From Candidatus Uhrbacteria bacterium (GTDB lineage: Bacteria; Patescibacteriota; Patescibacteriia; UBA9934), in contig CALRHV010000004.1 in assembly GCA_943359525.1 (NCBI GenBank), positions 1 to 62,277 on the forward strand: 62,277 nucleotides of DNA, given 5' to 3'. Made by a program: the position numbers and the translations under genes. Position 1 is the stretch's first letter, and each line of letters opens with the position of its first letter. Positions 5,442 to 58,370 of the stretch are shown here, one piece after another. Below the pieces are notes generated by a model. It did not search any database, was not told the origin of the DNA, and saw only the letters and a program-made list of their open reading frames with translations.

Positions 5442-5645
5442 CAGTCATCCCCGCGCAGGCGGGGATCCAGCGACTTCACTTCACTCACTCATCAACGGGT
5501 CCTGTCGCCTCGGACCCCGTTACGGTGCTCATTTCGCACGTGACGTTTGTGGTAATCGTCATTGGTATCTGTGCTCGTTGCGCTCCGTACGGGGACCTCC
5601 CTCGGCGCCACCCGTTGATTCGTTCGCTTCGCTCATCTCCCTCTT
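5442..5645. repeat. Structured intergenic element starting with REP family A (CAGTCATCCCCGCGCAGGCGGGGATCCAG)
   Basis: REP at 5442-5470; internal IR ATCAACGGGT/ACCCGTTGAT; motif GTGCTCGTT at 5571; 3' end CCTCGGCGCCACCCGTTGATTCGTTCG closely matches 12240-12270. Confidence 0.75.
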
Positions 5646-5648
5646 CCT

Positions 5649-6797
5649 ATGCCAAATCACGACTACGCACAGCGTTCGATGGATGCGCATAAGCTTCATG
5701 CAGGAAAGTGGGCTATCACGAGCGTGATGCCGCTCGAAACGGCGGACGATTTGAGCATTGCGTACACTCCTGGCGTTGCTGCGCCGTGTTTGGCGATTGC
5801 CGCAGATCCGTTGGCTGCATACGATTTAACAATGAAGGGGCGTGCCGTTGCTGTTGTTTCTGACGGATCGTCCGTGCTCGGTCTTGGCAATATTGGCCCG
5901 ATGGCTGGGTTGCCGGTGATGGAAGGAAAAGCGGTGTTATATAAAAAATACGCGAACATTGACGCGGTGCCAATTGTGCTTGCAAGTCAGAACGCAGATG
6001 AAATTGTGGAAGCGGTGCGCATGATTGCGCCAACATTTGGCGGAATTCATTTGGAAGATATTGCTGCGCCTGCATGTTTTGAAATTGAACGACGGTTAAG
6101 TGAGATGCTCGACATTCCCGTAATGCACGACGATCAGCACGCAACCGCAATCGTCGCCCTCGCAGGGCTCATGAATGCGTCGAAGGTTATGGATCGATCG
6201 TTGGATTCGATGACTGTTGTGGTAAACGGTGCTGGTGCGGCGGGAATCGCAATTACCCGATTGCTCATTGACGCTGGTGTTGCGAATGTCATCCTTGTCG
6301 ACTCAAAAGGTGTCATTGGTCATCATCGATCAGATCTTGCTGGCGAAAAGTCTGTTCTCGTTTCGCTCACGAACAAGAATAGCGTTCAAGGTGGGCTGGC
6401 AGAGGCGATGCACGGAACGGATGTATTCATCGGTGTGAGCAAGCCGAATCTTGTGTCGCAAGACATGGTGAAATCGATGGCGCCGAATCCGATTATTTTT
6501 GCACTAGCAAATCCAGTACCAGAAATTGCATACGACGACGCGAAAGCGGCTGGCGCTGCGGTGATCGCCACCGGACGAAGCGACTATCCAAATCAAATCA
6601 ACAATGTCCTTGTGTATCCGGGCTTGTTCCGTGGGTTGTTGAATCGTCGAGCAAGTAAATTGACGAATACGATGAAGATCGCGGCAGCAATCGCTCTCGC
6701 GGGCATGGTTGCTGAGCCAACGGCAGAGAATATTATTCCGAGAATCATCGAAATGAATCCTGCTGAAGTGATCGCGAAAGCTATTGAAAGCGTATGA
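5649..6797 (+). CDS. NAD(P)-dependent malic enzyme (short, single-domain type)
   Basis: [72 protein letters not shown]. Confidence 0.93.
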
Positions 6798-7333
6798 GGC
6801 AACAAAGCTTCAGACACCGCGGAGGGACACGTTCCGGCCTTGGCGGAGGAATTTTATTTATTATCGCTGTGCTCGCTGGGGCGTTCTTGGTGTATCAACT
6901 TATTCTTTGGTTCCGTTCGAGCAATGCAAAAACCATTGCGGATGACGTGATTGCGGTATCGACCGTTGATGTCGCCGAAGCACAAGCCACGTCAACCGCT
7001 CAGCTGAATAGCACAGCCGTGTTTACAATGCTCGACGGTTCGTCTGTTGGAACGGTTGTTCGTTCAGGCACGCCCGAAGTACCGTCGTACAGCCTAGTAG
7101 CGAATCTTCCCGCCATCGCGCCGGACGTTTCGTACGAAGTGTGGTTGGTGAAAGATGGACTTGCTGATGTGAAGAGTGTTGGCATATTGAGCCCTCGTGC
7201 CGATGGAAGCTGGACAGCGATGTTTACCATGAAAGATCCACTGGAATATCCAACCGTCGTGATCATGCTCGAACCAAACGACGGCAACGCCGAGCCTTCA
7301 GGGAACCGTGTCGCAGAGGGACGATTTGAATAA
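6794..7333 (+). CDS. Membrane-anchored protein with RskA/anti-sigma-like C-terminal domain
   Basis: One TM helix, then YEVWLV...SVGIL...IMLEPNDGNAEPSG pattern typical of the RskA C-terminal domain. Confidence 0.55.
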   Translation: MRQQSFRHRGGTRSGLGGGILFIIAVLAGAFLVYQLILWFRSSNAKTIADDVIAVSTVDVAEAQATSTAQLNSTAVFTMLDGSSVGTVVRSGTPEVPSYSLVANLPAIAPDVSYEVWLVKDGLADVKSVGILSPRADGSWTAMFTMKDPLEYPTVVIMLEPNDGNAEPSGNRVAEGRFE

Positions 7334-7334
7334 T

Positions 7335-8546
7335 ATGACCATCGGCGTCCTTGGTGCGGGATACGTTGGACTTGCGACAGCGGCGAGTTTCGCTGCTCGG
7401 GGATTCGCTGTTGTTTGCGCCGACATTGACGAGAAGAAAATTGCGAAATTGCAGATTGGTGAGCTTCCATTTTTCGAGGAGGGAATGGTTGAGGTGTTTG
7501 CAGCGTCATCGATTCCGGTGGTATTTACTACCGATCTTGCGAAAGCATGTACGTGTGACATCGTGTTCTGTTGTGTTGGTACGCCGAGCGCGGCCGATGG
7601 TTCCGCGGATCTCTTTTTTGTGCGGTCGGCGGCGAAGGCGTGTGCTGACGTTGCGCTAAATGCGATTTTTGTTTTGAAATCGACAGTTCCGCCAGGAACT
7701 TCGCTGTCGATTTCAAAATTCGTCGAAGGAAAGCTGCGCGTTGCAGCGAATCCAGAATTCTTGCGTGAAGGACATGTGATTCAGGATGCGTTGAATCCGT
7801 CGAGGATCGTGATTGGTGCAGACGACGAATCGGTCCTATCGGTCTTATTAGACCTATATTCCGAAACCGAAGCACCGATTGTTTCCACGAACACGGTTAC
7901 CGCCGAAATGATTAAGTACGCGTCGAATAGTTTTCTTGCGACCAAGATTAGTTTCATTAATGACATTGCGAATCTTTGCGACGTGATTGGCGCCGACGTG
8001 CGGTCGGTTGCGACGGGGATGGGACTTGATGATCGTATCGGTGCCAAATTTCTTCAGCCTGGCCCGGGATACGGCGGAAGCTGTTTTCCAAAGGATGTTC
8101 GCGCACTGATCCATCTTGGACGATCCGTGAATGTGCCACTGCGAATCCTCGAGGCAACAACAGCGATTAATGCGGATCGTCAACTATTGCCGTATCGCCA
8201 GCTCGTCGAATCTCTAAGAAACCTAAAAGGAAAACGTATCGCAGTGTGGGGCTTGGCGTTTAAACCTGGAACGGGAGACATCCGCGACGCACCGGCGCTC
8301 GAATTGTTGCGCCGATGTATTGCCGACCACGCCGATCTCGTTGCTTTCGACCCGCGTGTTCGATCGTTGCCTGCAGAATGTGGTGAGGTGAAGATCGCGG
8401 CCGCCGCTATTGATGCACTGCATAACGCCGACGCACTCGTGATTATGACAGACTGGTCCGAGTTCGCTGAGTTCGATCGTGCAGAGATTCTCAAGAGCAT
8501 GCGCGGGAACTGCATTATTGATCCGCGATACGTGTTGCGAGGATGA
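7335..8546 (+). CDS. ugd: UDP-glucose/GDP-mannose 6-dehydrogenase
   Basis: GAGYVG, CVGTPS, KSTVPPGT, NPEFLREG, EMIKYASNSFLATKISFIN, GYGGSCFPKD, GLAFKP. Confidence 0.93.
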   Translation: MTIGVLGAGYVGLATAASFAARGFAVVCADIDEKKIAKLQIGELPFFEEGMVEVFAASSIPVVFTTDLAKACTCDIVFCCVGTPSAADGSADLFFVRSAAKACADVALNAIFVLKSTVPPGTSLSISKFVEGKLRVAANPEFLREGHVIQDALNPSRIVIGADDESVLSVLLDLYSETEAPIVSTNTVTAEMIKYASNSFLATKISFINDIANLCDVIGADVRSVATGMGLDDRIGAKFLQPGPGYGGSCFPKDVRALIHLGRSVNVPLRILEATTAINADRQLLPYRQLVESLRNLKGKRIAVWGLAFKPGTGDIRDAPALELLRRCIADHADLVAFDPRVRSLPAECGEVKIAAAAIDALHNADALVIMTDWSEFAEFDRAEILKSMRGNCIIDPRYVLRG

Positions 8547-8562
8547 TATACTGTTCGTGTCT

Positions 8563-9303
8563 ATGCCGATGTTTCGTAAGACTCCTCCGAATGTACCTTT
8601 GGAGAAGTGTCGATTTCCGTTAAATGACCAGGAGCGTGCGCTTTGTGAACAACAGGGTCTGTTTCCGCATTCCTCGGAAATTACGTGGCGTGTGTTTCGG
8701 ATTATGGCAGAAATTGTGGAAGGTTTTCACTTGCTCACGAAAACGAAGCACGAGATATCCGTCTTTGGATCGGCGCGCTGTGCACCAACCAGCCATTGGT
8801 ATAAGGAATCGTACGCGTTAGGAAAATTGCTCGGCAAAAATGGATTTACCGTGGTTACCGGTGGTGGTCCAGGCATTATGGAGGCAGCGAATAAGGGTGC
8901 TTTCGAGGAAGGCGCGCAGTCGGTTGGTTTGAATATTGAGTTGCCACACGAACAGCGGTTAAACCCGTACGTCACCCTTTCGCATGGGTTTCACTACTTT
9001 TTTACTCGGAAGGTTATGTTGGCTGCCGCGGCGCAGGCCTACGTCTTTTTTCCGGGTGGCTTTGGCACGATGGACGAGCTTTTTGAGCTGTTAACATTGG
9101 TGCAAACAGGGAAGTCGAGCAAAATGCCTATTGTGCTCGTCGGGAAGGATCATTGGGCGCCGCTGATTGCCTGGCTGGAAAACAGCGTGTACGGTACGCA
9201 GGACGCGATTGATCCCGGCGACTTGCGAATCTTTACCGTGGTAGACTCCGCAAAGGAGGCATTCGATATTGTGTCGAAGTCACCAGAGCGCCACCTATTC
9301 TAG
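8563..9303 (+). CDS. LOG family protein (TIGR00730-type Rossmann fold)
   Basis: VFGSAR, TGGGPGIMEAANKGA, YFFTRK, PGGFGTMDELFE. Confidence 0.9.
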   Translation: MPMFRKTPPNVPLEKCRFPLNDQERALCEQQGLFPHSSEITWRVFRIMAEIVEGFHLLTKTKHEISVFGSARCAPTSHWYKESYALGKLLGKNGFTVVTGGGPGIMEAANKGAFEEGAQSVGLNIELPHEQRLNPYVTLSHGFHYFFTRKVMLAAAAQAYVFFPGGFGTMDELFELLTLVQTGKSSKMPIVLVGKDHWAPLIAWLENSVYGTQDAIDPGDLRIFTVVDSAKEAFDIVSKSPERHLF

Positions 9304-9309
9304 ACGATT

Positions 9310-10884: not shown

Positions 10885-10885
10885 T

Positions 10886-11008
10886 AGAACTTTTTCATTT
10901 TAGGCTAGTTTCGATGCGCTAGGAGCAAAGTTCGCGAAACGTACTTCTCGGTACGTTGAGCGAATTTGCGACGCGGCAAGTCGAAAATAGACAAAATGAG
11001 GAAGTTCT
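10886..11008. repeat. 123-bp imperfect foldback (MITE-like hairpin)
   Basis: Nested IRs AGAACTT/AAGTTCT, TCATTTT/AAAATGA, TTTCGA/TCGAAA, GCAAAGTTCGC/GCGAATTTGC, AACGTAC/GTACGTT. Confidence 0.7.
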
Positions 11009-11030
11009 CTATAAGTGGTAAAATACAGTC

Positions 11031-12041: not shown

Positions 12042-12045
12042 TCCT

Positions 12046-12290
12046 CAGTCATCCCCGCGACCTGTCCCCCGGAGGGGGAAGGCGGGGATCCAGTGACTGA
12101 CCGCTCGCTAGTGGCTCGGATACATTCTTCTGCACTCCGCGCGAATCCCCTACGCTGCGACGTCTCACTTCGTTCGACTGCAGCTGAGGGGCGCGTGCTC
12201 GTTGGAAGAATACATCCTCGCCACTCACGCTCGCGATGTCCTCGGTGCCACCCTTGATTCGTTCGTTCGCACAATTCATCTCCCCATTTC
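12046..12290. repeat. Structured intergenic element (REP family A with nested hairpin plus long stem)
   Basis: GTCATCCCCGCG[ACCTGTCCCCCGGAGGGGGAA]GGCGGGGATCCA; homologous to the reverse complement of 17107-17291. Confidence 0.85.
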
Positions 12291-12291
12291 T

Positions 12292-12969
12292 ATGCTCACT
12301 TTTGTTCAAGAAAAATTATTACAGCAGCTCACCACCAAGCGAGGGAGACGTGAGACAGAGATGTTTGTGATTGAGGGCGAAAAATTTGTTCGCGATGCTG
12401 GGGGATTGGTGGAGTTTACGTTTACACCTGCCGACACAGCCCGATTTGCAGAATACGTTTCCACGGAGACACCTCAGGGGTTCGCCGCAGTTGCGCGTAT
12501 TCCAAAGGTGACCATGAAGCGTTTTGCGGAGTCGGCAACAATCGTTGTTCTCGATGGCGTTCAAGATCCGGGGAATGTTGGGACGATTCTTCGTGCAGCG
12601 CTTGGCTTTGGCGCGAGCGTTCTCCTGGTCGAATCTGCAGAAGTCACAAACCCGAAGGTTGTTCGTGCATCGGCGAGCGCGATTTTGAGAACACCGTGGA
12701 TGATGGTTGCTCGAGAAGATGCTGGAGCGATCATTGCGTCGTTTTGTAGACCGGTGTATCGGCTCGAGCTTCGTGATGGCGCGCTGCTCCCGAACGATAT
12801 CCGCCCAGAGCCTTGTGTGGTTATTGCGGGAAGCGAAGGGGGCGGCATCACATTACCTGTTGCGGGAACGTCGATTGCGATTCCGCACAACCCAGCACTT
12901 GAATCGTTAAATGTTGGCGTTGCAACATCAATTATTTTGTATGAACGAAGTCGACAGCTCGCCGTTTAG
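12292..12969 (+). CDS. TrmH/SpoU family RNA 2'-O-methyltransferase
   Basis: FVIEGEK, ETPQG, LDGVQDPGNVGTILR, GSEGGG, ESLNVGVA. Confidence 0.9.
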   Translation: MLTFVQEKLLQQLTTKRGRRETEMFVIEGEKFVRDAGGLVEFTFTPADTARFAEYVSTETPQGFAAVARIPKVTMKRFAESATIVVLDGVQDPGNVGTILRAALGFGASVLLVESAEVTNPKVVRASASAILRTPWMMVAREDAGAIIASFCRPVYRLELRDGALLPNDIRPEPCVVIAGSEGGGITLPVAGTSIAIPHNPALESLNVGVATSIILYERSRQLAV

Positions 12970-17077: not shown

Positions 17078-17104
17078 CGAGCTCGAAAGAGCTCGTTTTG
17101 GTTT
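17078..17104 (+). terminator. Probable intrinsic terminator after secF
   Basis: CGAGCTC-GAAA-GAGCTCG followed by TTTTGGTTT. Confidence 0.65.
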
Positions 17105-17106
17105 GG

Positions 17107-17291
17107 AGGAATCGCGAAGCGCCAGTGGCGAGGATGTGTGATTCAAACGAGCACCCCGCCTCTCGCGAGAGGCGGGGTCGCAGCGTAGGGGATTTGCGCG
17201 GAGTGCAGAATTACACATCCGAGCCACTAGCGTAGCGATAGCTGATGGATCCCCGCCTTCCCCATCCGGGGACAGGTCGCGAGGATGACTG
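17107..17291. repeat. Inverted copy of the 12046 structured element
   Basis: Reverse complement aligns over about 185 bp with 12046-12240. Confidence 0.85.
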
Positions 17292-17334
17292 AAGAGATTT
17301 CTGCCGTGCTATAATCAGGAGGACTTTATCGCCT

Positions 17335-30066: not shown

Positions 30067-30097
30067 TGGACCTGAACTGATTTTTTGAATGGTATAT

Positions 30098-30175
30098 CAG
30101 TCATCCCCGCGCAGGCGGGGATCCAGACTGTTCGATCCTGTGTGTTATGGATCCCCGCCTGCGCGGGGATGACTG
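30098..30175. repeat. Inverted doublet of REP family A
   Basis: CAGTCATCCCCGCGCAGGCGGGGATCCA ... TGGATCCCCGCCTGCGCGGGGATGACTG. Confidence 0.9.
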
Positions 30176-30234
30176 AGGGTGAACATAGATGCATGTCTTC
30201 CGATTTCGCCTTTTTTCACATACACTTCCCACAT

Positions 30235-33691: not shown

Positions 33692-33790
33692 TTAGTCCAC
33701 TGTCACAGCCTTCGCAAGATTGCGGGGACGGTCGGGGTTGATATCTTTGAGCACGGCAAGTTCGTAAGCAAGGATTTGAAGGGGGATGTT
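33692..33790 (-). pseudogene. Duplicated 3' end of glmS (99 bp), att-like direct repeat
   Basis: Encodes [32 protein letters not shown]; 91/99 nt identical to 34510-34608. Confidence 0.9.
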
Positions 33791-33886: not shown

Positions 33887-34435
33887 CTACTGTGTTTCCC
33901 GCCAGGTGAGGAAGTCGAGGATGATCTCGACGAGCTGGCCGGTGGTCACCCGACTCTCCATTCCTCTCAGCTTGATGTCCTCGAGGAACCGCTGCAGCCT
34001 TGGGTTCAGCGGCCGCTCCATCCCGTCGCCGTCGGAACACTCCCAGGTTCCTGAGGTGTCCTTTGGCCGCAAGAAGAAATCGTGCCCGTTGAGCGTTACG
34101 GTCAGGAGAACCGGATGCGTGTTCATCCAGAATCCGCCGTAGAGATCCGGCGTCTGGTAGTTGATGCCCACCATGACGCAGAACGCTCCATTAAACCTCA
34201 ATTCCGGGCGGTCGATTTCGCGAGGCTCGGTCCAGCAGACTTCAGAATGTTGTTCTCCGATTCCTTCGTGTTCGATCGCCTGCTCGCTCTGCTCTCGGTT
34301 GTAGCCCATTCGGGCTTCGACGATGCCGATGATCATGCGGGCGGTGCTCACGAGGTAGTTCAGTTCGACCAGCGTGGGGAGGATGGTGTCGTCGGTATTA
34401 GAATCGGTGTCGTTGTTCACGGGAACTCCAGTCAT
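33887..34435 (-). CDS. Hypothetical protein (cargo between the glmS repeats)
   Basis: Open frame, GC3-rich codons, own promoter; start taken at MTGVPV. Confidence 0.6.
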   Translation of the reverse strand: MTGVPVNNDTDSNTDDTILPTLVELNYLVSTARMIIGIVEARMGYNREQSEQAIEHEGIGEQHSEVCWTEPREIDRPELRFNGAFCVMVGINYQTPDLYGGFWMNTHPVLLTVTLNGHDFFLRPKDTSGTWECSDGDGMERPLNPRLQRFLEDIKLRGMESRVTTGQLVEIILDFLTWRETQ

Positions 34436-34478
34436 GGTGTGGGTTGGCGATGCATCGATGACGAATCGATGACCAGAG

Positions 34479-34507
34479 ATTATCGCATAGATTAGCGAAA
34501 AAGTCAA
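34479..34507 (-). promoter_or_regulatory. Sigma-70 promoter of the cargo gene
   Basis: TTGACT-N17-GATAAT on the minus strand, starting 2 nt after the glmS stop. Confidence 0.7.
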
Positions 34508-34509: not shown

Positions 34510-36333
34510 TTAATCCACGGTTACAGCCTTCGCAAGATTGCGGGGACGGTCTGGGTTGATATCTTTGAGCACGGCAAGTTCGTAGGCGAGGAGTTGGAGG
34601 GGGATGTTCGCCACAAGGCCGGTGAGGACACCGTTTTTTGGAACGATGATGGTTTCTGAGGCAACGCGTTCTGCGAGCTTTGGATTGTCGGTGATAATGA
34701 TGGTTCGTGCGCCACGAGCTCGTACTTCTTCGGCGGCGGTTCGCATGAGCTGACCATGTTGATCATCGAAGATACAGAGAATCACCGGCGTGTTTTCCAC
34801 GATGAGTGCGAATGGCCCGTGCTTCAGCGCGCCGCCAGCATACCCTTCGGCATGGAGATAGGTAATCTCTTTAATCTTTAGCGCACCTTCTCGAGCAATT
34901 GATTCGCATGGCCCTTTTCCGAGCACGAAGCAATGCTCGGCATCCACGAGGGTTTTTGCGATCTCCTTACACGTTTCGCGAGTGTTGAGCGCGATTTTCA
35001 CGAGCGTTGGCAAGCGACGAAGTTCGTCGATGAGATGACGGCGACGCTCAGCTTCGGTACCGCGATGCATGCTGAACCACGCGGCAATCATTTCGAGTGC
35101 GACGACTTGCGTGCTAAATGCTTTCGTCGATGCTACTGCATGTTCGCGACCAGCGTTGAGGTACACGCCACATTTTGTGCTTCGCGCAATGAGCGATCCA
35201 ACCGCGTTTATCACCGAGAATGTTGGCACACCGCGATCTTGGGCAATGACGAGCGCGCGATGGGTGTCCTTTGTTTCGCCGGATTGTGAAATCACGAGTA
35301 GGCCGGCGCCGTGTGGAGCGAAGTGATGTTCGGTGATTTCGGATGCGTCGACTACTTGCACGGTGTCGAAGGCCTTCAACGCTCGCATACCAAGTGCACC
35401 GTACATGCCGGCGTGAAGCGATGTTCCGCACGCGGCGATGACCAGGTGTTTTATGCCGAGGAGTGTTTCTTTGTTGCGTTCCAGTCCGCCGAGCTTCATC
35501 TCGAGATCCGTTGGAATACGTGCGCCGTGGTTGAGTGTTCGTGCAAGCGCGTCGGGTTGCTCCATGATTTCCTTGATGGTCCAGTGTGGAAAAGGAGCGG
35601 GGGAGAGCTCGATGACTTCTTCTGGCGCAAGCTCGACTCGTGAAGTATCGAGTGTGGTGCCTTCCGGAGTGATCAGCGCGAACTCGCCGTTTTGTAATGC
35701 GATGAACTCGCGGGTGTGATTGTTGAATGCCGACGGTTCGCTCGCAACGTACATGGTTCCTTTTCCAACGCCAACCACCAGAGGACTGCCGTTTCGAGCT
35801 GCCAGAATCGTATTTGGCATCAGCGGAGAGACGACTGCGACGCCCCACGTGCCTTCAAGTTTCGCAAGGGCGTGCTTCGTCGCCACGTCCAATCCCTCGC
35901 CGTCGTCGAGGTATTTTCCGATGAGTTGGGCGATGATTTCTGTATCAGTTTGAGATTTGAAAACAATTCCCAAGGCTTCGAGATCGGCCTTGAGCATGTG
36001 CGCGTTCTCGATAATGCCGTTGTGGACGAGGGCAAGACGATTCTTCATGTCCGAGTGGGGATGGGCGTTGGCATCCGTTTTTCCACCATGTGTTGCCCAA
36101 CGGGTATGGCCAATGCCAGATCGATTCCCGACGTGGTCGGCGATATGTTCTCGAAGTTTCACGATGGCATCGGGAGCAACGCCGCTCGCGAACTTTGTCG
36201 TGACAATCGTTCCAGCGTCCGAAACCGTCGCCACGCCAGCAGAATCGTATCCACGGCTTTCCAAAATCGAAAGCCCGTCAATAATTATGCTGACACTATT
36301 TGTATCCCCAACAACCCCGATGATTCCACACAT
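34510..36333 (-). CDS. glmS: Glutamine--fructose-6-phosphate aminotransferase
   Basis: [57 protein letters not shown]. Confidence 0.97.
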   Translation of the reverse strand: MCGIIGVVGDTNSVSIIIDGLSILESRGYDSAGVATVSDAGTIVTTKFASGVAPDAIVKLREHIADHVGNRSGIGHTRWATHGGKTDANAHPHSDMKNRLALVHNGIIENAHMLKADLEALGIVFKSQTDTEIIAQLIGKYLDDGEGLDVATKHALAKLEGTWGVAVVSPLMPNTILAARNGSPLVVGVGKGTMYVASEPSAFNNHTREFIALQNGEFALITPEGTTLDTSRVELAPEEVIELSPAPFPHWTIKEIMEQPDALARTLNHGARIPTDLEMKLGGLERNKETLLGIKHLVIAACGTSLHAGMYGALGMRALKAFDTVQVVDASEITEHHFAPHGAGLLVISQSGETKDTHRALVIAQDRGVPTFSVINAVGSLIARSTKCGVYLNAGREHAVASTKAFSTQVVALEMIAAWFSMHRGTEAERRRHLIDELRRLPTLVKIALNTRETCKEIAKTLVDAEHCFVLGKGPCESIAREGALKIKEITYLHAEGYAGGALKHGPFALIVENTPVILCIFDDQHGQLMRTAAEEVRARGARTIIITDNPKLAERVASETIIVPKNGVLTGLVANIPLQLLAYELAVLKDINPDRPRNLAKAVTVD

Positions 36334-41404: not shown

Positions 41405-41474
41405 AGCGGTGCTACCGCAACGCACACCTCGAGCTCTGACGCAGAGCCCGGGGTGTTGCCGTTTCTGGGGACAA

Positions 41475-41712
41475 AAAGAAACTGACCTTGGAATGGGTTG
41501 TGACGGAACGGCTGGGATTTGCATCTTCGGCGACTTGGCATGTTCGATTTTGAATATTGCGAGTGTAAAGACCTCTTTACACTTTTCTGATGGAAAACCT
41601 CAATAAAAGTGTAGATTGATATGTAAAGAGGTCTTTACACTCACGGATTGGGAAATCGAGTACCCCAAGCTCACAAGTCCCTTCTTTTTTCAAAGAATCA
41701 GTTTCAGATCCA
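41475..41712. repeat. Structured intergenic element with GTGTAAAGAGGTCTTTACAC palindrome doublet
   Basis: 82-bp core 41561-41642 matches the reverse complement of 58217-58298; flanks also homologous. Confidence 0.85.
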
Positions 41713-41734
41713 TTTCTTTGGGGACAACTCAGTT

Positions 41735-41775
41735 TTGACATCACCGAGTTAGCACTCTATACTTGAGACTGCTAA
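41735..41775 (+). promoter_or_regulatory. Sigma-70 promoter with overlapping CIRCE operator
   Basis: TTGACA(41735)-N17-TATACT(41758); TTAGCACTC-N9-GACTGCTAA at 41749-41775 (1 mismatch to CIRCE). Confidence 0.93.
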
Positions 41776-42476: not shown

Positions 42477-43079
42477 ATGACGCAAGACGAATCACAGAAT
42501 CCAGGATCGAATTTGGTCGGGGACAAGGAAGCGAATGTCAGTCATCCTGAGCATAGCGAAGGATCTCCCGCAGATTCCGGTCATCCCCGCGCAGGCGGGG
42601 ATCCATCATCAGATCTCGAAGCCCTTCAAACCAAATGCGCCGAATACCTCTCCGGCTGGAAGCGTGCTCTCGCAGACTACGAAAACCTTCAAAAGCAAAA
42701 CTCCAGCGCCCGCGATGATGATCGCCGACGCGTTCGATCGAATCTCGCAGAAGACTTGCTCCCCGTCGTCGACAACTTCGGCTACGTCACGAAGCACGTT
42801 CCCGACATCAGCGAGTGTCCTGAAGAGTTCAAGAAAAAGTTCGACACCTGGTTCCAAGGCATCGGCCATATTGAACGCCAATTCGCGGAAGCGATGAAAG
42901 GACTCGGCGTTGAGCCGATTGAAAGCATCGGCACGATCTTCGACCCGAACCTTCACGAAAGCGGCGGCTCGCGATCGGAACCTGGAAAGAAAGAACACGA
43001 GATCGTGGAAGAACTCATCAAGGGCTGGAAGATCGGTGACGTTGTTCTGCGACCTGCAAAAGTAATCGTTAATGAATAA
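42477..43079 (+). CDS. grpE: Nucleotide exchange factor GrpE with REP-derived N-terminal insert
   Basis: [41 protein letters not shown]. Confidence 0.93.
42541..42605 (+). repeat. Two REP units (family B and family A) in-frame in grpE
   Basis: GTCATCCTGAGCATAGCGAAGGATCTC (42541-42567) and GTCATCCCCGCGCAGGCGGGGATCCA (42580-42605). Confidence 0.9.
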
Positions 43080-43083: not shown

Positions 43084-45003
43084 ATGTCAAAGATCCTCGG
43101 TATCGATTTAGGGACAACAAACTCATGTGTAGCAATCATGGAAGGCGGACAGCCGAAGGTGTTGGAGAATAAGGAGGGAATGCGAACCACGCCATCCATC
43201 ATCGCGGTTGCGAAGAATGGTGAGCGACTTGTGGGGCAACCTGCAAAGCGACAGGCGGTGACGAATCCAAAAAACACTCTTTATTCGATTAAGCGATTGA
43301 TCGGACGACGGTTTAAGGATGAGGAAGTACAGCGCGATATCAAACTGATGCCGTTTGCGATTGTGGCGCGGGGTGAGGGAATTGCGATCAAGATGGGAGA
43401 GAAGGATTTTTCTCCGCAGGAAATCGCGGCAATGGTGCTTGGAAAGATTAAGGCGGATGCGGAGGAGAAGACGGGGGAGAAGATTACTGAAGCCGTCATC
43501 ACCGTTCCTGCATATTTCGATGATGCGCAGCGTCAGGCAACGAAAGATGCTGGTGAGATCGCAGGTTTGAAAGTCTTGCGTATTATCAACGAACCAACCG
43601 CTGCTGCATTGGCGTATGGTTTTGATAAGAAGGTTGGTCAAAAAATCGTTGTGTACGATCTTGGTGGAGGAACGTTCGATGTGTCGGTGCTCGATGTTTC
43701 CGAGGGAACTGTCGAAGTTCTCGCAACAAACGGTGACACGCATCTTGGTGGCGACGACTTCGATCTGACCATCATGAAGTGGATTCTTGATGAGTTTAAG
43801 AAGCTTGAAGGAATCGACCTTTCTGGTGATGCATTGGCGATGCAGCGTATTAAGGACGCGGCAGAACGTGCGAAGATTGAATTATCTACCGCGCAAACAA
43901 CGGAAATCAACCAACCATTCATCACGTCCGGAGCTGAAGGGCCAAAGCATTTGGTGATGTCGCTTTCACGATCGAAACTCGAGGAACTTGTTGGCGGACT
44001 CGTCGATAAAACGATGGAGCCAGTGAAGAAAGCGCTTGCGGATGCGAAGATGGATGCGAAGGCAATCGGCGAGATCGTGATGGTGGGAGGTATGACCCGT
44101 ATGCCACTCGTGCTTTCGAAAGTTGAAGCGTTCTTTGGAAAGAAACCAAACGTGACGGTGAACCCAGATGAGGTCGTCGCTGTTGGCGCTGCGGTGCAGG
44201 CTGGTGTGATGCAGGGCGATGTGAAGGATGTGCTGTTGCTCGATGTTGCCCCACTGAGCCTTGGAATCGAAACCATGGGAAGCGTGTTCACAAAGTTGAT
44301 CGATCGCAACACCACGATTCCAACCAGCAAGTCGCAGGTGTTCTCGACTGCTTCCGACAACCAGCCAGCCGTAACGATTCGCGTCGGCCAGGGCGAGCGC
44401 CCAATGTTTAATGACAACAAAATTCTTGGTCAGTTCGATCTCTCTGGAATCCCGCCAGCACCTCGCGGTGTTCCGCAGATTGAGGTGAAGTTCGATATCG
44501 ATGCGAACGGAATCTTGCACGTATCAGCAACAGACAAGGCGACGAATAAAGCACAGACGATTACGATCACGTCATCGTCAGGCTTGAGCAAGGAAGAAAT
44601 TGAGAAGATGAAGGCCGATGCAGAATCGCACGCCACCGAAGACAAGGCAAAGCAAGAACTCATCGAAGCGCGCAATATTGCGGATACCATGATGTACACC
44701 GTGGAGAAAATGCTTGTCGATAATAAGGACAAGGTTTCTGAAGAGGACAAAAAGATTCTCGAGGAGAAGATGGAGGCAGTAAAGAAAGTGAAGGATACTG
44801 ATGATCTGGAAGCAATCAAAGCTGCTGGCGATGATCTTTCAAAAGAGGCTCAGCGTGTTGGTGGCGCGATGTATTCCAAGGACGACGCTGCAAAGAATGC
44901 TGACGCGAGTCATCCTGAGGGCACCGAAGGATCTCCGTTGGAATCAGAGGCGAAAGATGCAGAGTTCACGGAGAAGAAGGACGATGGTGCTTCGCAGAGT
45001 TAA
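43084..45003 (+). CDS. dnaK: Chaperone DnaK (Hsp70)
   Basis: [56 protein letters not shown]. Confidence 0.98.
44909..44935 (+). repeat. REP family B unit in-frame in the dnaK C-terminal tail
   Basis: GTCATCCTGAGGGCACCGAAGGATCTC encodes SHPEGTEGS. Confidence 0.85.
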
Positions 45004-49078: not shown

Positions 49079-49088
49079 TATCTTGGTT

Positions 49089-49156
49089 CGTCATCCCCGC
49101 GTAGGCGGGGATCCATCACTCCGAACAATCTGGATCCCCGCCTACGCGGGGATGAC
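49089..49156. repeat. Inverted doublet of REP family A between convergent genes
   Basis: CGTCATCCCCGCGTAGGCGGGGATCCA ... TGGATCCCCGCCTACGCGGGGATGAC. Confidence 0.9.
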
Positions 49157-49166
49157 CGGAGTTCAG

Positions 49167-52509: not shown

Positions 52510-52611
52510 ATCCATGTCTCGTGCGCCGCGATGCGGCTGGCCAGCTTGCGCTGGCGAACCACAAAAAGACAACCCAGGTGGGTTGTCTTTTTGTGGTTCC
52601 GAGACATGGAT
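52510..52611. repeat. Long inverted repeat/terminator incorporating the tRNA-Gln 3' end
   Basis: Arms 52556-52575/52580-52599 (20 bp perfect) and 52510-52521/52600-52611 (12 bp), with a 34-nt insert in one arm. Confidence 0.75.
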
Positions 52612-52667
52612 TCGAACCATGATTAAGAGATTCAGAGTCTCTCGTCCTGCCGTTAGACGATCTCGGA
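52594..52667 (-). tRNA. tRNA-Gln (CTG)
   Basis: TCCGAGA/TCTCGGA acceptor, anticodon arm AGAGA-CTCTGAA-TCTCT, GTTCGAATC, encoded CCA. Confidence 0.95.
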
Positions 52668-52747
52668 TTAATTGTTGCAACGCCGGGAATATACCTATTT
52701 TGGGACGCTTCGTCAATTGGTTGCGCGCTACTTCTTTTTGGCTTTTT

Positions 52748-53134: not shown

Positions 53135-53135
53135 T

Positions 53136-54077
53136 TTACTCCTTCATTGCCTTCTTCTTCAATCCAACACCGCGGTTTCCATGGCGCTCCACGCGACGCT
53201 CCAAGAAATCCACCACTTTGCCGGCAACGTTGATGCCGGTTGCTTTGCTGATGCCTTCCAGCCCTGGGTTGCTGTTGACTTCGATAATTTTTGGTCCAGA
53301 TTTCGTACGCAAGATATCAACGCCGGCAATATCGAGGCCAAGGATGAGGGTGGCCTTGATCGCGAGCCTCTTTTCCTCATCGGAGAGATCAACTGGCCCA
53401 ACACTTCCGCCTTTATGAAAGTTTGCACGGAACTCGCCAGCCTTCGCCGAACGCTCCATTGACGCTAACACTCGCTTGCCGGCCACGAACACGCGAATAT
53501 CTTTTCCTTGCGCCTCTTCAATATACTCCTGCAACTTTACCGGACCGTGTTCTTTCTTGGTGAGGTAATCGACGATTGGAGAGAGCGATCGCATCGACTC
53601 GGCGATGAACACACCGGTGCCGTGCGTGCCGTAAATCGTTTTGACAATAACTGGAAAGGTGAATTCTTCAGCCGCGACTTTCAAAAGCGACGCATCGCCT
53701 ACCACGTGGGTTCGTGGAACGGGAAGACCGAAGTGGTTGAGCATTTGCAACGTACGAATTTTATTCTTTGCGCGAAACACGCCAATGTACGTGTTGATGA
53801 CGTAAAAGTTCGCCAACTGGAATTGTTTAATGATGGACGCGTTCACGCTAGGATCCGCGGTGAATCCTGGCCGAACCAAGATGACGTCGAAATCCTCGGG
53901 ATTCAGTACTTCTCCCTTGTATGTGAGCGTCTTGCCGTTGCCGAAGACAAGGCCGACATTATGCGCATACAACATTTTCACGCTGTGCCCGCGGCCCTTT
54001 GCTTCGTCGACGATGCTTTTCGTTCCAACAGCGATTTGTTCCTTTCCTGCCACGAAACTGAGAATTCCGATCCTCAT
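53136..54077 (-). CDS. rimK: RimK family ATP-grasp alpha-L-glutamate ligase
   Basis: AKNKIRTLQML, PVIVKTIYGTHGTGV, QEYIEEAQGKDIRVFV, FRANFHKGG, GVDILR, EVNSNPG. Confidence 0.88.
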   Translation of the reverse strand: MRIGILSFVAGKEQIAVGTKSIVDEAKGRGHSVKMLYAHNVGLVFGNGKTLTYKGEVLNPEDFDVILVRPGFTADPSVNASIIKQFQLANFYVINTYIGVFRAKNKIRTLQMLNHFGLPVPRTHVVGDASLLKVAAEEFTFPVIVKTIYGTHGTGVFIAESMRSLSPIVDYLTKKEHGPVKLQEYIEEAQGKDIRVFVAGKRVLASMERSAKAGEFRANFHKGGSVGPVDLSDEEKRLAIKATLILGLDIAGVDILRTKSGPKIIEVNSNPGLEGISKATGINVAGKVVDFLERRVERHGNRGVGLKKKAMKE

Positions 54078-54098
54078 ATCTATGATGCAACCTGAGTA

Positions 54099-55070
54099 TT
54101 AAAGGGTAACCAGTATTTCGTCGAGCACCGCTTCAATCTCCTCGCGTGTTTTCACCGTCATCATCTTTTCGCGGTGCGATTTTACGTGAGGCAAACCTTT
54201 GAAATACCAGGACATGTGCTTGCGGAATGTGGTTACCGATTCTGGTCCGTACTGCTCAAGATGTAATGCAAGATGCATTTTTACGACACGAATACGTTCC
54301 TTGAGTGTGACTGGTTCGGGTGTTTTCCCTGCAGCAATTTCCTTGAACTGTTTAAAAATCCACGGATTGCCTAGCGCGCCGCGAGCAATGAGTACGCCGT
54401 CGCAACTGGAAATATCGATTGCCGTTTGAATGAGTTCTGCTTTGTGTACGTCGCCATTACATAATACCGGAATTGAAACGGCCTGTTTTACTTTACCCAC
54501 CGCTTCCCAGTCCGCAACACCAGAGTATCCTTGCATTCGCGTTCGGCCGTGAACGGTGAGGAGATCTACTCCTGCGTCCTCGAGCACCTTCGCAAAGGTT
54601 ATTGCGTCTGTTGGATCAGACCAGCCCAATCGAATCTTTACCGATATCGGCACCGATGTGACCGATCGCATTGCCTTAACAATCGCCGCGGCACGTTCTG
54701 GTTCCTTCATGAGCGCGGCGCCATTGAAGTTGCTCACAATCTTGTACACCGGGCAACCCATGTTCACGTCGAAACCTTCGGGATGATGTTCGGCCTCGAT
54801 GATACGCGTCGCTTCAGCCATCGTTGCGGGATCGCTTCCAAAGAGTTGCTGTACGAGTGGCCGCTCGTCGTCGTGAATCGCGGCCATGCCGAGCGTTTTG
54901 TCGTTTCCACGAATCACCGCCTCAGACGACACCATTTCGCGGAACATGATGAGCGGAGTCTCGCCGGTGACCGCCTTCACCACACGGCAAAACGCACTGT
55001 CGGTCATGTCCGCCATGGGGGAGAGGGCGACGATAGGTCGCGGAAGGGTTTTCCAATCGAGGATAGCCAT
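54099..55070 (-). CDS. dusB: tRNA-dihydrouridine synthase (DusB-like)
   Basis: LSPMADMTD, QLFGSDP, DVNMGCP, VKIRLG, LTVHGRT, NGDV, IARGALGNPW. Confidence 0.93.
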   Translation of the reverse strand: MAILDWKTLPRPIVALSPMADMTDSAFCRVVKAVTGETPLIMFREMVSSEAVIRGNDKTLGMAAIHDDERPLVQQLFGSDPATMAEATRIIEAEHHPEGFDVNMGCPVYKIVSNFNGAALMKEPERAAAIVKAMRSVTSVPISVKIRLGWSDPTDAITFAKVLEDAGVDLLTVHGRTRMQGYSGVADWEAVGKVKQAVSIPVLCNGDVHKAELIQTAIDISSCDGVLIARGALGNPWIFKQFKEIAAGKTPEPVTLKERIRVVKMHLALHLEQYGPESVTTFRKHMSWYFKGLPHVKSHREKMMTVKTREEIEAVLDEILVTL

Positions 55071-55103
55071 AGAAGAACCTCTAGTATGCTACAATCCGGA
55101 CAT

Positions 55104-55328
55104 ATGACGCAAATGATTGAGTTTAATGAAGAAGAGCTTTTCGAGACAATCGTTGAGGAAGGGCATGTACAAGGGATTGCCGACGAAGCAGCGTATTTTG
55201 ATCTTATCGATGAAACCATCGAAGATTTGCGCAGTGTCGCAGAATTGAACGACGATCAGAATCTTGATAGTCATGCCGAGCACCTGAAGGCGCGGTTCCG
55301 GGAATACATGGATCGGCAAGCAGAATAG
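55104..55328 (+). CDS. Small acidic hypothetical protein
   Basis: MTQMIEFNEE...; TGCTACAAT 8 nt upstream; abuts the next gene. Confidence 0.55.
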   Translation: MTQMIEFNEEELFETIVEEGHVQGIADEAAYFDLIDETIEDLRSVAELNDDQNLDSHAEHLKARFREYMDRQAE

Positions 55329-55333
55329 TGATT

Positions 55334-56695
55334 ATGCGCCTCACCTTTTACGGTGCCGTGGAAAGCGTGACTGGATCATGTTTTTTGCTGGAAACGCCAA
55401 AGGGGAAGCTCCTTATTGATTGCGGGATGCATCAGGGTGAGCGCATGTGTTCGAAGGTGAATCTCGAACCGTTCGGATTTCAACCGGAGCATATTGACGC
55501 CGTGGTCGTCACACATGCACATTTCGATCATACCGGTCGCTTGCCAGATCTCGTGAAGCAAGGCTACAAGGGAAAGATTTTCATGACGCCGCCGACTAAG
55601 GCGTTGATGCAGCTTGTTCTTGAGGACTCCGTGCACATCATGGCGGAGAACGCCAAGAAGTGCGGGGATCCGGTGGTGTATGAGAAGGCGGATCTTCATG
55701 CGATGCTCGAGCAGGTTGTGACCGTTCCGTATCATCACATTACATCGCCACTCGAGGGAGTGAGCGTGGAGTTTTTTGACGCCGGACATATTCTTGGATC
55801 GTCGTTCATTCGTGTGGTGGTAGACGACACTGGCGAATCAAAAACGCTTATCTTCAGCGGTGACGTGGGAAATGACGACGTACCGATTTTGCCGGATACA
55901 GAGATCCGACCTGAAGCGGATTACGTAATCTGTGAATCAACGTACGGCGCGAAAGATCATGAAAAATCTGCAGTGCGTGAACCGATGCTTGCGGATTTTG
56001 TAAAAAAGGTTATTGGACGAGGAGGGACGTTGATGATCCCGGCGTTTTCAATTGAGCGTACACAGGAATTGTTGTTCGCGCTCGATCAGCTGCTCCAGCG
56101 CGGTGAGATCCCATCGATCCCAATGTACCTTGATAGCCCACTCGCGATTCGTGCCACGGAGCTTTATCGTTTCTTTAGCGAGTATCTTTCCTTCGAGCAT
56201 CCTGCTGCGCCAGGGAAGGATGGCGACTGGTTCCGATTCCCGTCGCTTACTGAAACACTCACCCCAGATGCTTCGAAAATAATCAACGATGATAAGCGTC
56301 CAAAAGTCATCATCGCCGGCAACGGCATGATGACTGGTGGCAGAATATTGCATCACATGGCGCGCTACATCGACGACGCGAAATCCGGCCTGCTCATCAT
56401 TGGCTATCAAGCCGACCATACACTCGGTCGAAAAATTCAGAACGGTGCAACTGACATCAATATTTACGGAGAAAAACACTCGGTTCGCGCCGAGTTACTC
56501 ACGATCGACGCTTTCTCGGCACATGGCGACCAAAAGAAACTTACGACGTTTGTTCGTGGAAACGGTGTGCCACCAAAGCGGGTATTCTTGGTGCACGGCG
56601 AGGGGCCAATTAAAGATACATTCGCAACGCACCTTCGTGCTTCACTTGGCGTTGAAGTTGAGGTTCCTCATGTGATGCAAACGTATGAGCTTTAA
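55334..56695 (+). CDS. MBL-fold/beta-CASP ribonuclease (Ysh1/Cft2-like)
   Basis: IDCGMHQG, THAHFDHTG, AGHILGS, SGDVG, ESTYG, FSIERTQE, FSAHGD, VHGE. Confidence 0.92.
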   Translation: MRLTFYGAVESVTGSCFLLETPKGKLLIDCGMHQGERMCSKVNLEPFGFQPEHIDAVVVTHAHFDHTGRLPDLVKQGYKGKIFMTPPTKALMQLVLEDSVHIMAENAKKCGDPVVYEKADLHAMLEQVVTVPYHHITSPLEGVSVEFFDAGHILGSSFIRVVVDDTGESKTLIFSGDVGNDDVPILPDTEIRPEADYVICESTYGAKDHEKSAVREPMLADFVKKVIGRGGTLMIPAFSIERTQELLFALDQLLQRGEIPSIPMYLDSPLAIRATELYRFFSEYLSFEHPAAPGKDGDWFRFPSLTETLTPDASKIINDDKRPKVIIAGNGMMTGGRILHHMARYIDDAKSGLLIIGYQADHTLGRKIQNGATDINIYGEKHSVRAELLTIDAFSAHGDQKKLTTFVRGNGVPPKRVFLVHGEGPIKDTFATHLRASLGVEVEVPHVMQTYEL

Positions 56696-57251
56696 AGCGA
56701 TCATCGCAAATAAAACTTTTGTTCTCGCCGGGATGGTGATTGTACTTTCGGCGGTGTTGGTTATTGGCAGACACTTTGATGCGAGCTGGGCTGGGGGAGA
56801 AGGGTATCGTGCACGATCGGAGATTGTTGTGGTTGAACAGACCGATCCATCATCTGACATCGGATGTGAGGAGGTCGATGCATCGAGGAAAAATATATTG
56901 TCGTGTGGATCGATGATGAAGATTGCTTTTGGCTCGTCGATCATTTGGATGGACGCAAAGACATCACTCGTCGTGATCAATGATCGTGAGGGAAAAGAAG
57001 AGCTCGCGTTGTATGGTGGTCGAATCGTTGTCGATGGTCCGGTTGTTGTCGATGTTCGAGATCAGCAGTTTTCGGCATCGGAACCGATGAGTATTGTGAA
57101 TTATGGTTGGTTGTATCGCGTTGATGTGTTATTGATGGAGCAAGATACTGCGAAGAGTTTTGACACGTTGCCGCCGTATGACGAACCAAAAGACATCGAA
57201 TTCAGCACGCAAAGCGAAAGCGTCAAAGACTTCTACGACTGGGCGCATTGA
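56685..57251 (+). CDS. Hypothetical membrane-anchored protein (possible FecR-like beta domain)
   Basis: N-terminal TM followed by beta-strand-rich sequence. Confidence 0.5.
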   Translation: MSFKAIIANKTFVLAGMVIVLSAVLVIGRHFDASWAGGEGYRARSEIVVVEQTDPSSDIGCEEVDASRKNILSCGSMMKIAFGSSIIWMDAKTSLVVINDREGKEELALYGGRIVVDGPVVVDVRDQQFSASEPMSIVNYGWLYRVDVLLMEQDTAKSFDTLPPYDEPKDIEFSTQSESVKDFYDWAH

Positions 57252-58131
57252 GGAATTTCATAAGATTGTTTTTGATTGGTTCAGGGTTCATCGGCGCGAC
57301 CTTCCTTGGCGGAGAACCACCGATCCGTACGCTATTGCACTTTCCGAGATCATGCTCCAGCAAACACAAGTCGATCGCGTTATTCCAAAATGGCGTGCAT
57401 TTCTTTTGGCGTTTCCCACGTGGAGTGATCTTGCGAGTGCATCCACGGCGGATGTGATCCGATTGTGGCAGGGGCTTGGCTACAACCGTCGTGCCGTTAT
57501 GCTTCATCGATTAGCGAAGGCCGTGATCGATCTCGGCAGGGAGCTTCCCGATGATATCGATGCAATGAAGAAGCTTCCTGGTATTGGCGACTACACCGCG
57601 AACGCAATCGCAGCCTTTGCATTTCGCAATCCCGACGCTGCACCAGTCGATACAAATATTTCGAGAATCTTCCGTCGCGTATTTCCTCGTCATCGATCTG
57701 ACCCGAAGTCGATGCAGCGACTAGCTCGATCGATCCGTCCAGCCGATGTCTGGACGTGGAATCACGCACTCATGGACATCGGAGCGCTTCACTGCTCGGC
57801 GCGAGGTCATGTTTGGGGTTTATGTCCGTTGGCTCCTCTTCATGGATCGAAAGAGCCTAAGATATCTCTCCACCCATTTATGGGGGGAGTCGGAGGGGGG
57901 CTTGTACGTGCGAAGAAGGCGATCAAATTCGAATCCACCGATCGCTACTTCCGCGGCCGAATCGTCGATGCCCTCCGCGAATCGCCGATGATGCTGAAGA
58001 AACTTCGTCTCCGATCGGAGCTTGCGGGCCTCGAAGAAGCTCGATTTCAGACCTTGATTTCGAAGCTTGTGCATGGCGGTGTCGTCGAACAGTACAAAAG
58101 TACGGTATTCTTGGCGGGTGATCGGGACTGA
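57178..58131 (+). CDS. mutY: A/G-specific adenine glycosylase (MutY-like HhH-GPD), degenerate Fe-S motif
   Basis: RRDLPWRR, SEIMLQQTQV, GLGYNRRA, LPGIGDYTA, PVDTNISR, ALMDIGA; start uncertain. Confidence 0.85.
   Translation: MTNQKTSNSARKAKASKTSTTGRIEEFHKIVFDWFRVHRRDLPWRRTTDPYAIALSEIMLQQTQVDRVIPKWRAFLLAFPTWSDLASASTADVIRLWQGLGYNRRAVMLHRLAKAVIDLGRELPDDIDAMKKLPGIGDYTANAIAAFAFRNPDAAPVDTNISRIFRRVFPRHRSDPKSMQRLARSIRPADVWTWNHALMDIGALHCSARGHVWGLCPLAPLHGSKEPKISLHPFMGGVGGGLVRAKKAIKFESTDRYFRGRIVDALRESPMMLKKLRLRSELAGLEEARFQTLISKLVHGGVVEQYKSTVFLAGDRD
57861..57900 (+). repeat. REP-like repeat family D inserted in-frame in mutY
   Basis: GATATCTCTCCACCCATTTATGGGGGGAGTCGGAGGGGGG; encodes ISLHPFMGGVGGG. Confidence 0.75.
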
Positions 58132-58139
58132 AATGGAGC

Positions 58140-58370
58140 GGAATCTTGGATGGGGTTGGGAGGGGCGCTGAAGGAAGATTATCGGCGAGGGTGGGGTGCT
58201 CGTTTGCCCAATCTCCGAGTGTAAAGAGGACTTTACATATCAACGTGCGCTTTTACTGGGGTTTTCGATCAGAAAAGTGTAAAGAGGTCTTTACACTCTC
58301 AAAACGTAAAAACACACGCGGTGCCGAAGCATTCTCTCCGTCCCAACCCATTCAAAGGATCAGTTTCAGT
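58140..58370. repeat. Inverted copy of the 41475 structured element
   Basis: Core 58217-58298; outer IR TTGGATGGGGTTGGGA / TCCCAACCCATTCAA; GGGGTGCTCGTTT at 58193. Confidence 0.85.

Follow-up and report, generated by a model that had tools for sequence, protein, structure and literature searches.

Among the described systems closest to the repeats reported here are the REPINs, which combine two inverted, conserved short palindromes at a fixed distance (71 nt in the GI family) with a less conserved spacer between them, whose hairpins commonly carry compensatory changes, and which are mobilised by RAYT transposases (Bertels and Rainey, 2011; PMC3116915). A second system is formed by the intergenic mosaic elements of Neisseria (NIMEs), in which RS elements are flanked by dRS3, a 20-bp inverted repeat of the form ATTCCC-N8-GGGAAT (PMC1797815). 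Here we compare with these, and with miniature inverted-repeat transposable elements (MITEs) such as Correia (CREE), ERIC and BIME, five loci (E1 to E5) found in a stretch of 62,277 nucleotides (contig CALRHV010000004.1, hereafter the window) from a groundwater Uhrbacteria-like Patescibacterium. We consider it probable that the five loci represent two unrelated families, A (E1, E2, E3) and B (E4, E5), of non-autonomous mobile hairpin repeats of the REPIN/MITE/NIME type that belong to one narrow Uhrbacteria-like clade. A third repeat, a hairpin resembling dRS3 and repetitive extragenic palindromic (REP) sequences, is attached to the family-A copies and is called the head below. As selfish or semi-domesticated repeats they are a further case of a kind already known; E1 to E5 do not constitute a new RNA gene and add no new RNA family.

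Patescibacteria have tiny, tightly packed genomes. These repeats repeatedly entered spacers of only 4-13 nt between essential genes, and they are nested and turn over between genomes of 80-92% protein identity. The two families are new and stand, with the dRS3-like hairpin, in a phylum where such repeats seem undescribed; repeats of the REP, REPIN or MITE type are not reported from Patescibacteria in the literature searched. They serve as markers for strain tracking, are a cause of broken assemblies, and give a concrete starting point for finding the enzyme by which hairpin repeats are moved in this phylum. The window has a G+C content of 50.7% and is gene-dense, with mostly co-directional genes, and the five loci sit amid housekeeping genes; the nearest named relatives of its SecF, malic enzyme and MutY-like protein are from Patescibacteria or Candidatus Uhrbacteria. 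Forty further loci (L001-L040) were fetched for comparison.

Two families and a separate hairpin

A sequence-only reading of the window had united the five loci in one family of structured intergenic elements around a conserved GTGCTCGTT core. All five stretches are present, and the homologies it had noted between them were recovered by self-BLAST: 12042-12243 (E2) matches the reverse complement of 17106-17295 (E3) at 78% over 204 nt, 41478-41667 (E4) matches that of 58192-58367 (E5) at 77% over 191 nt, and 5600-5652 (E1) matches 12240-12295 (E2) at 81% over 58 nt, the latter being a common 3' end that reaches the ATG in both copies. Among the boundaries, the start of E1 had to be moved from 5442 to approximately 5404. 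The five loci are real but had been over-unified. E1, the E2/E3 pair and the E4/E5 pair are unalignable beyond shared modules (MAFFT, BLAST), so that a single-family model was abandoned in favour of two unrelated families and a separate small REP-like hairpin; E1 and E2 have only the REP head and tail modules in common and not the body, and nhmmer profiles of A1 and A2 (the two family-A bodies) and of B gave neither cross-matches nor additional copies in the window.

Exact GTGCTCGTT occurs seven times in the window against 0.61 expected, a count that 0 of 100 shuffles reached. Four of the copies lie in E1, E2, E3 and E5, on the + strand at 5571, 12195 and 58196 (for the latter 58193 had been given) and on the - strand at 17146, and the other three are intragenic (20216, 30333, 31803). 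The variant proposed for E4 (41655-41663, reverse complement GTACTCGAT) has two mismatches and is not distinctive, and it carries no weight because matches with up to one mismatch already number 32 in the window against 17.6 expected. The sole commonality of families A and B is a 14-mer, GGGGTGCTCGTTTG, present in E3 and E5; its length exceeds all 300 shuffles (maximum 13), and it is absent from the remaining members of both families.

Family B

Family B was defined on an alignment of eight sequences from five independent loci. Its outer part consists of terminal inverted repeats of ~35 nt (...CTGAACTGATyCTTTGAnGGGGTTGGGA... vs ...TCCCAACCCAyTCAAAGGATCAGTTTC), and its inner part of inverted arms of ~38 nt, each ending in a palindrome GAGTGTAAAGA-GG/CC-TCTTTACACTC; the spacer between the palindromes, TTTyATTGGGGTTTTCGATCAGAAAAG, is asymmetric and conserved. 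In E4 and E5 a perfect 20-22-nt palindrome forms an inverted doublet with a spacing of 58 nt. E4 (41472-41713, - strand) is a reversed copy located upstream of the hrcA promoter and CIRCE, with inner 48-nt inverted arms (41534-41581, 41622-41669) inside its outer terminal inverted repeats and with the palindromes GTGTAAAGACCTCTTTACAC (41563-41582) and TGTAAAGAGGTCTTTACAC (41622-41640). E5 (58126-58375, + strand) lies between a MutY-like HhH-GPD gene and a thioredoxin gene, its left inverted repeat providing the stop codon of the upstream gene, and carries its palindromes at 58220-58237 and 58278-58295. GTGCTCGTT (58196-58204) stands in the left inner arm of E5, and GTGCTCGTTTG, also part of this arm, is represented in the other copies by GTACTCGATTT, ATGCTCGATTT, GTGCTCGGTTT, GTGCCCGTTTG, GTATGGGTTTT and GTGTGTGTTTTT. 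GTGCTCGTTTG is therefore not a family-B core, as the position varies among copies, and GTGCTCGTT in E5 is probably a local feature of one arm that is poorly conserved in the family.

The family-B core corresponds to the structural definition of a REPIN, with a doublet of fixed start-to-start spacing (58 nt in E4 and E5, 56 nt in the related copy L034), and it is able to form a long hairpin or clover, is extragenic and appears to be multi-copy (two copies, beside three of family A, in 62 kb). It differs from described REPINs in that the doublet lies inside an extra frame of ~35-nt terminal inverted repeats, in its Patescibacterium host, in the lack of sequence similarity to any of them, and in that no RAYT gene, which REPs usually flank, was found among the open reading frames (ORFs) of the window scanned against Pfam (most, not all, of them).

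Scanning metagenomes with the palindrome brought up contigs from Hainich groundwater that carry orthologues of E4 and E5 together with three further copies, which adjoin topA, a surface protein gene and clpB/CIRCE, making at least five Hainich loci. Within the Hainich genome the copies resemble one another at only 72-77%, which rules out a recent burst of copying. Isolated exact 19-mer matches to the palindrome in five other loci (L020, L022, L023, L025, L027) stand in unrelated contexts and were set aside, and the resemblance of the palindrome to a TyrR box (TGTAAA-N6-TTTACA) was discounted as a coincidence in this phylum.

Just downstream of E4, a CIRCE operator (TTAGCACTC-N9-GACTGCTAA, 41749-41775; also listed for the E4 orthologue L028) overlaps a TTGACA-17-TATACT promoter directly upstream of hrcA-grpE-dnaK-dnaJ. 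In the Hainich genome another family-B copy abuts the CIRCE by clpB (L029, ~8089-8115).

Family A and its dRS3-like head

Family A is a mosaic of the 20-bp head, long imperfect hairpin bodies of two types (A1 and A2) and a common 3' tail. The bodies are single long hairpins and not REP doublets, which sets them apart from REPINs. E1 (5404-5636, + strand) is a family-A1 composite that begins with two degenerate head starts (5404-5440), followed by the head proper (5441-5470, TCAGTCATCCCCGCGCAGGCGGGGATCCAG) and by the A1 body with its tail (5484-5632), an imperfect long hairpin CATCAACGGGTCC...GGACCCCGTTACGG / CCGTACGGGG...CCACCCGTTGATTCG with a variable apex and with GTGCTCGTTGCG at the inner foot of the 3' arm (GTGCTCGTT at 5571-5579). 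E2 (12042-12291, + strand) is a family-A2 composite, in which a head with a nested extra hairpin (12042-12093) precedes the A2 body (12098-12239), a distinct long hairpin GCTAGTGGCTCGGAT... / ...ATCCTCGCCACT, and an A1-type tail remnant (12240-12291) that lacks its 5' partner; GTGCTCGTT (12195-12203) occupies the equivalent place in the A2 body. E3 (17106-17295, - strand) is a reversed A2 copy with its head at the high-coordinate end, located exactly between the terminator of SecF (17078-17095) and the next gene's TGCTATAAT promoter. At its apex a perfect 24-26-nt palindrome, CCCCGCCTCTCGCGAGAGGCGGGG (17153-17178), replaces the inner stem of E2, with GTGCTCGTT at 17146-17154 on the - strand. 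In family A, GTGCTCGTT would be a sub-motif conserved at the 3' arm's inner foot and on that account a candidate recognition or cleavage site. A reading of the A1 arms as integron attC sites was rejected because of a poor fit of the core sites and because the genes alongside are housekeeping genes.

The modules are combined differently in other copies. L016 and L017 have an A1 body behind an A2 5' arm, L013 is a short remnant, and the A2 apex holds differing perfect 24-26-nt palindromes in E3 and in L016/L018. The whole E1 unit, including its triple head, is found at 86% identity over 233 nt next to an ABC-F gene (L014), and the E1 body at 90% over 147 nt between yqeY and hflX (L017); both loci are in another Uhrbacteria genome, adjoin different genes and have no coding similarity to the window. 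When GTDB was scanned with a pattern of the family-A tail, one genome per species, seven loci were obtained from two genomes only (3-4 per genome), adjoining unrelated housekeeping genes (Mur ligase, ABC-F protein, YqeY/HflX). The same tail gave zero matches in a scan of Joint Genome Institute (JGI) metagenomes.

The head is a 20-bp hairpin ATCCCCGC-GCAG-GCGGGGAT preceded by (TCA)GTC and followed by CCAG. It is attached to all three family-A copies, in each case at one end only. With 6-bp arms and eight central bases (ATCCCC-N8-GGGGAT) it differs from dRS3 by one base per arm, and its context CAGTCATCCCCGCGCAGGCGGGGATCCAGC (window 5441-5470, 30097-30176, 42577-42606 and 49087-49160; L039, L040) is nearly identical to the usual neisserial dRS3 context CGTCATTCCCGCGCAGGCGGGAATCTAGC. 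By BLAST it matches gonococcal copies at 87% over 31 nt in at least 40 places, flanks included, and similar multi-copy hairpins occur in Photobacterium (at least 40 places on one replicon), Coxiella, Azospirillum and Novosphingobium. Judged by these matches, the dRS3-like head is a small repeat common to several phyla, and its likeness to neisserial dRS3 suggests that the same class of machinery may act across very distant phyla. As in NIMEs, the head is joined to variable bodies of 50-200 bp from several families, in mosaics that differ between close relatives. The differences are that RS bodies are flanked by dRS3 on both sides, whereas the head stands on only one side of the bodies here and forms no long arrays, that the bodies here are long hairpins themselves, and that no dRS3-integrating phage or recombinase is known here.

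Further copies of the head stand in the window, a part of them in inverted doublets, along with two sibling types of hairpin that have the same GTCAT...ATC frame, altogether about a dozen hairpins. One inverted doublet of the head (30097-30176, GTCATCCCCGCGCAGGCGGGGATCC) has 22 nt between its arms and no family-A body, and a second (49087-49160) has 15 nt between its arms; both fit the REPIN arrangement. Hairpins of the GTCAT...ATC type also lie in frame, and are translated, in the N-terminus of GrpE (42541-42606) and in the C-terminal tail of DnaK (44909-44932), and they are kept in the orthologues in L028 and L031. These small in-frame hairpins, and not E1 to E5, recall the Rickettsia palindromic elements, which reportedly lie in frame within protein-coding genes; they are much shorter than the latter.

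Empty sites and cargo turnover

The proposal that the loci are non-autonomous mobile elements was supported by empty sites in sister genomes, by copies at non-orthologous loci, by the turnover of their cargo and by the lack of an internal ORF in all five. In sister genomes the E1, E2 and E5 junctions measure 3-13 nt, with the exception of one E5 site (56 nt). At E1, the spacer between UvrD and the malic enzyme gene is 13 nt in L036, whose malic enzyme is 92% identical, in an arrangement common to 18 contigs, and 12 nt in L037/L038. At E2, between a GH42-like gene and spoU, the empty sites read TAA-TAGT-ATG (L007), TAA-TATT-ATG (L009) and TAA-ATT-ATG (L011) in genomes with SecF identities of 81-84%, and a closer relative (90% identity, L005) carries a 214-nt A2 element there. 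The E5 site is filled in the window, L021/L030, L031 and L034, and empty in L032, L033 and L035. The targets are thus very short spacers (stop-4 nt-start, stop-13 nt-start) or, for E3, a gap between terminator and promoter.

The nested, swappable cargo that had been described from the window alone could be confirmed between genomes, where nesting, swaps and deletions were all seen. The slot between SecF and the DUF8128 gene holds the A2 copy E3 in the window, a reversed composite of A2 arm and A1 in L005, and family-B frames in L007 and L009, which share the outer frame and not the core; the element of L011 at this slot is unclassified, as its ends resemble the B frame only in part. At the E5 site, L034 has kept the outer frame while ATGTTAGGTCGACCTAACAT, present twice and 56 nt apart, replaces the two copies of GTGTAAAGAGGTCTTTACAC that are 58 nt apart, and L031 has lost one palindrome and the spacer. 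The GG/CC centre of the palindrome flips among family-B copies, and palindromic modules at the apex are swapped, duplicated or deleted among close relatives.

In size (~190-250 bp), lack of ORFs, intergenic position, occurrence in either orientation and presence/absence polymorphism at orthologous sites (E1, E2, E5), the elements resemble MITEs. Family B shares with them its terminal inverted repeats, family A being a long hairpin instead, and the internally deleted L031 is similar to the short form of CREE. Unlike in MITEs, no consistent target-site duplication was seen and no parent insertion sequence with the same ends is known; no promoter or terminator consensus was found within the elements, and they have no sequence similarity to CREE, ERIC or BIME.

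Pyrimidine-rich leaders ending in (C/T)TATG, with no Shine-Dalgarno sequence, precede the start codons at E1, E2, L013, L015 and L019, and the same leaders are found at the empty sites L036 and L037, that is, with or without an inserted element. The DUF8128 gene and some other genes have AGGAGGA before the start instead.

Proposed mobilisation and alternative explanations

The elements would have been moved in trans by an unlinked enzyme, most plausibly an HUH/Y1 transposase of the RAYT/IS200 type that recognises hairpins in single-stranded DNA, or a site-specific recombinase as proposed for dRS3. Nested insertion, recombination between inverted copies and hairpin-templated correction may later have reshaped them, and the compensatory changes would reflect the upkeep of hairpins for the mobilising machinery or their tolerance in mRNAs and not an RNA gene. 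The linked HUH or HNH gene that the sequence-only reading had suggested looking for was not found among the window ORFs tested. The only match of a nuclease type is a stand-alone GIY-YIG ORF (2293-2568, 91 aa) that adjoins a YgjP-like gene ~3 kb upstream of E1, and it is not linked to the repeats, as L036 has it at the syntenic place but has no E1. The 40 loci compared showed no autonomous insertion sequence that shares these ends, although no search aimed at one was made. BLAST of E1, E2 and E5 against plasmid and phage collections gave no match, and scans of viral contigs yielded zero tail matches and one unrelated palindrome match.

Several observations weigh against an origin as mobile, selfish repeats. 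None of the scanned ORFs of the window matched a transposase of any kind. No target-site duplication is evident at E1, E2, E5 or L024, and flanking direct repeats, TTGTCCCCA(A)AGAAA, occur only at E4 and L028. The orientation of family A is non-random, the tail facing the downstream start codon in seven of the nine tail-bearing copies. The 86-90% identity of the A1 copies is not comparable to a neutral expectation, because the window and the CAIKHN genome share no orthologous coding overlap from which their divergence could be estimated. In several copies of family B, folding is better on the sense strand, where G-U pairs are also more numerous (16 vs 5 on the other strand in L026, 12 vs 3 in L029). 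Finally, E5 and its Hainich orthologue (L021/L030) share 96.6% identity over 262 nt, against 81% and 84% for the flanking genes, and this tract of high identity coincides with the element together with a short piece of gene end that is conserved in general; neutral selfish DNA would account for such conservation less well than purifying selection or a recent patch of recombination. Compared with the L031 and L034 versions, E5 is alignable at only ~50%. The case for a function rests mainly on E5.

Some of these points, namely the tail orientation, the stabler sense strand of family B and the conservation of E5, would also be expected if the repeats were cis-acting structured RNA modules of mRNAs (sites for RNase III or other processing, 3' stabilisers or insulators) that spread as repeats and were kept for the function of their hairpins. 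We regard this explanation, which is compatible with a mobile origin, as unlikely. All copies do lie within or between co-directional transcription units, and the elements fold strongly, with z-scores of -3.1 to -7.1 (-4.3 for E1). Yet both orientations relative to transcription occur (E3, E4, L016), in line with the earlier remark that all five stand between co-directional + genes in either orientation, and the neighbouring genes are functionally unrelated. The multi-copy structured non-coding RNA that had been put forward found no positive support: Rfam at gathering score matched only two tRNAs in the whole window, and a search of each element at E<=10 gave only matches far below the gathering scores, to generic long-hairpin microRNA models and to CRISPR repeat, sRNA, cis-regulatory, snoRNA and lncRNA models.

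Covariation gives a divided picture in this respect. The compensatory changes first noted between the stems of E2 and E3 were upheld in an A2 alignment of only four copies from two lineages, with 9 of 30 pairs changed on both sides against 0 of 500 shuffles and 0-2 in slid controls. On our analysis this covariation is real but also typical of REPINs, and the strand of A2 that folds better is the antisense strand of the element whatever the direction of transcription. In family B nearly all pairs are invariant and the covariation term of RNAalifold is unfavourable (+2.17), so that its palindromes are conserved in sequence and not in structure, and the flips of the GG/CC centre are neutral in double-stranded DNA but alter the loop of an RNA. 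The excess of G-U pairs on the sense strand could also result from strand-biased C-to-T mutation. Moreover, orthologous copies other than E5 evolve as fast as, or faster than, their coding flanks: E4 and its Hainich orthologue L028 are 79% identical with flanks at 82-86%, and E2 and L015 are 71% identical with flanks at 77-78%. The assembly that contains L015 (GCA_964425965.1, CAYROW01; also L016, L018 and L019) is titled 'uncultured Gammaproteobacteria bacterium', but it looks like a mislabelled Patescibacteria genome, because its genes are syntenic with those of the window at ~77-80% DNA identity and its SecF is 90% identical at the protein level.

Family B, or at least E5, may be an exapted module, either a strand-specific structured RNA or a protein-bound pair of palindromes, under strong purifying selection in this Uhrbacteria clade, and, separately, the dRS3-like head common to the Patescibacterium, Neisseria, Photobacterium and Coxiella may mark a widespread hairpin-recognising enzyme that is uncharacterised in these organisms; we consider these extensions rather improbable.

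It is quite doubtful that the invariant palindromes (the GTGTAAAGAGGTCTTTACAC doublet and the ATCCCC-N8-GGGGAT head) are binding sites on double-stranded DNA of a dimeric regulator, nucleoid protein or site-specific recombinase, and that some copies were co-opted as regulatory or recombination sites. Such a role would account for palindromes that are perfectly conserved between variable flanks, for a spacing that stays at 56-58 bp even after the palindrome has been replaced, and for centre flips that are neutral to orientation, and binding of a recombinase has been proposed for dRS3 of Neisseria (PMC1797815). Of the five independent family-B loci, three are next to stress genes (hrcA-grpE-dnaK, clpB/CIRCE, thioredoxin), but this link is based on five loci only, and the distance of the palindromes from the downstream start codons (100-280 bp) and their place upstream of the mapped promoter-like site of hrcA are not those of an operator. 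One copy lies between convergent genes (L026), the palindrome has been lost (L031) or replaced (L034) at an orthologous site, and no protein could be named as a candidate.

Chance similarity or an assembly artefact has a negligible probability: families A and B are indeed linked by a short motif only and repeats do confuse metagenome assemblers, but the E2-E3 region has the same bases in an ENA contig and in GCA_943356565.1 (L001, L002), two assemblies that are independent and of the same species, and the repeats are therefore not an assembly artefact, while homologues occur in several other genomes and the repeat statistics go far beyond shuffles. Mobile hairpin repeats of two families thus remain the reading that we favour for E1 to E5.

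Other repeats in the window

Inverted repeats of 86 nt (58683-58768 and 59826-59906, 88%), which are doublets of a third hairpin type (GTCATTGCGAGG...GCAATC), surround the Era GTPase gene and a small ORF. The 284-aa ORF between them (58943-59797) was considered as a transposase and proved to be this Era GTPase, the repeats being REP doublets. The left repeat (58683-58768) is missing from the orthologous Hainich region (L021), which represents another insertion polymorphism. A near-perfect palindrome of 44 nt (52556-52599, 95%) extends downstream from tRNA-Gln (52594-52667, - strand), whose final few 3'-end bases it overlaps; it may be a terminator or another repeat. Finally, a direct repeat of 99 nt (33692-33790 and 34510-34608, 92%) duplicates the last 33 codons and the stop codon of glmS and brackets a segment of 818 bp with one ORF of 206 aa (33887-34507) that has no Pfam match. 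This segment looks like a small element integrated in the 3' end of glmS, restoring the end of the gene.

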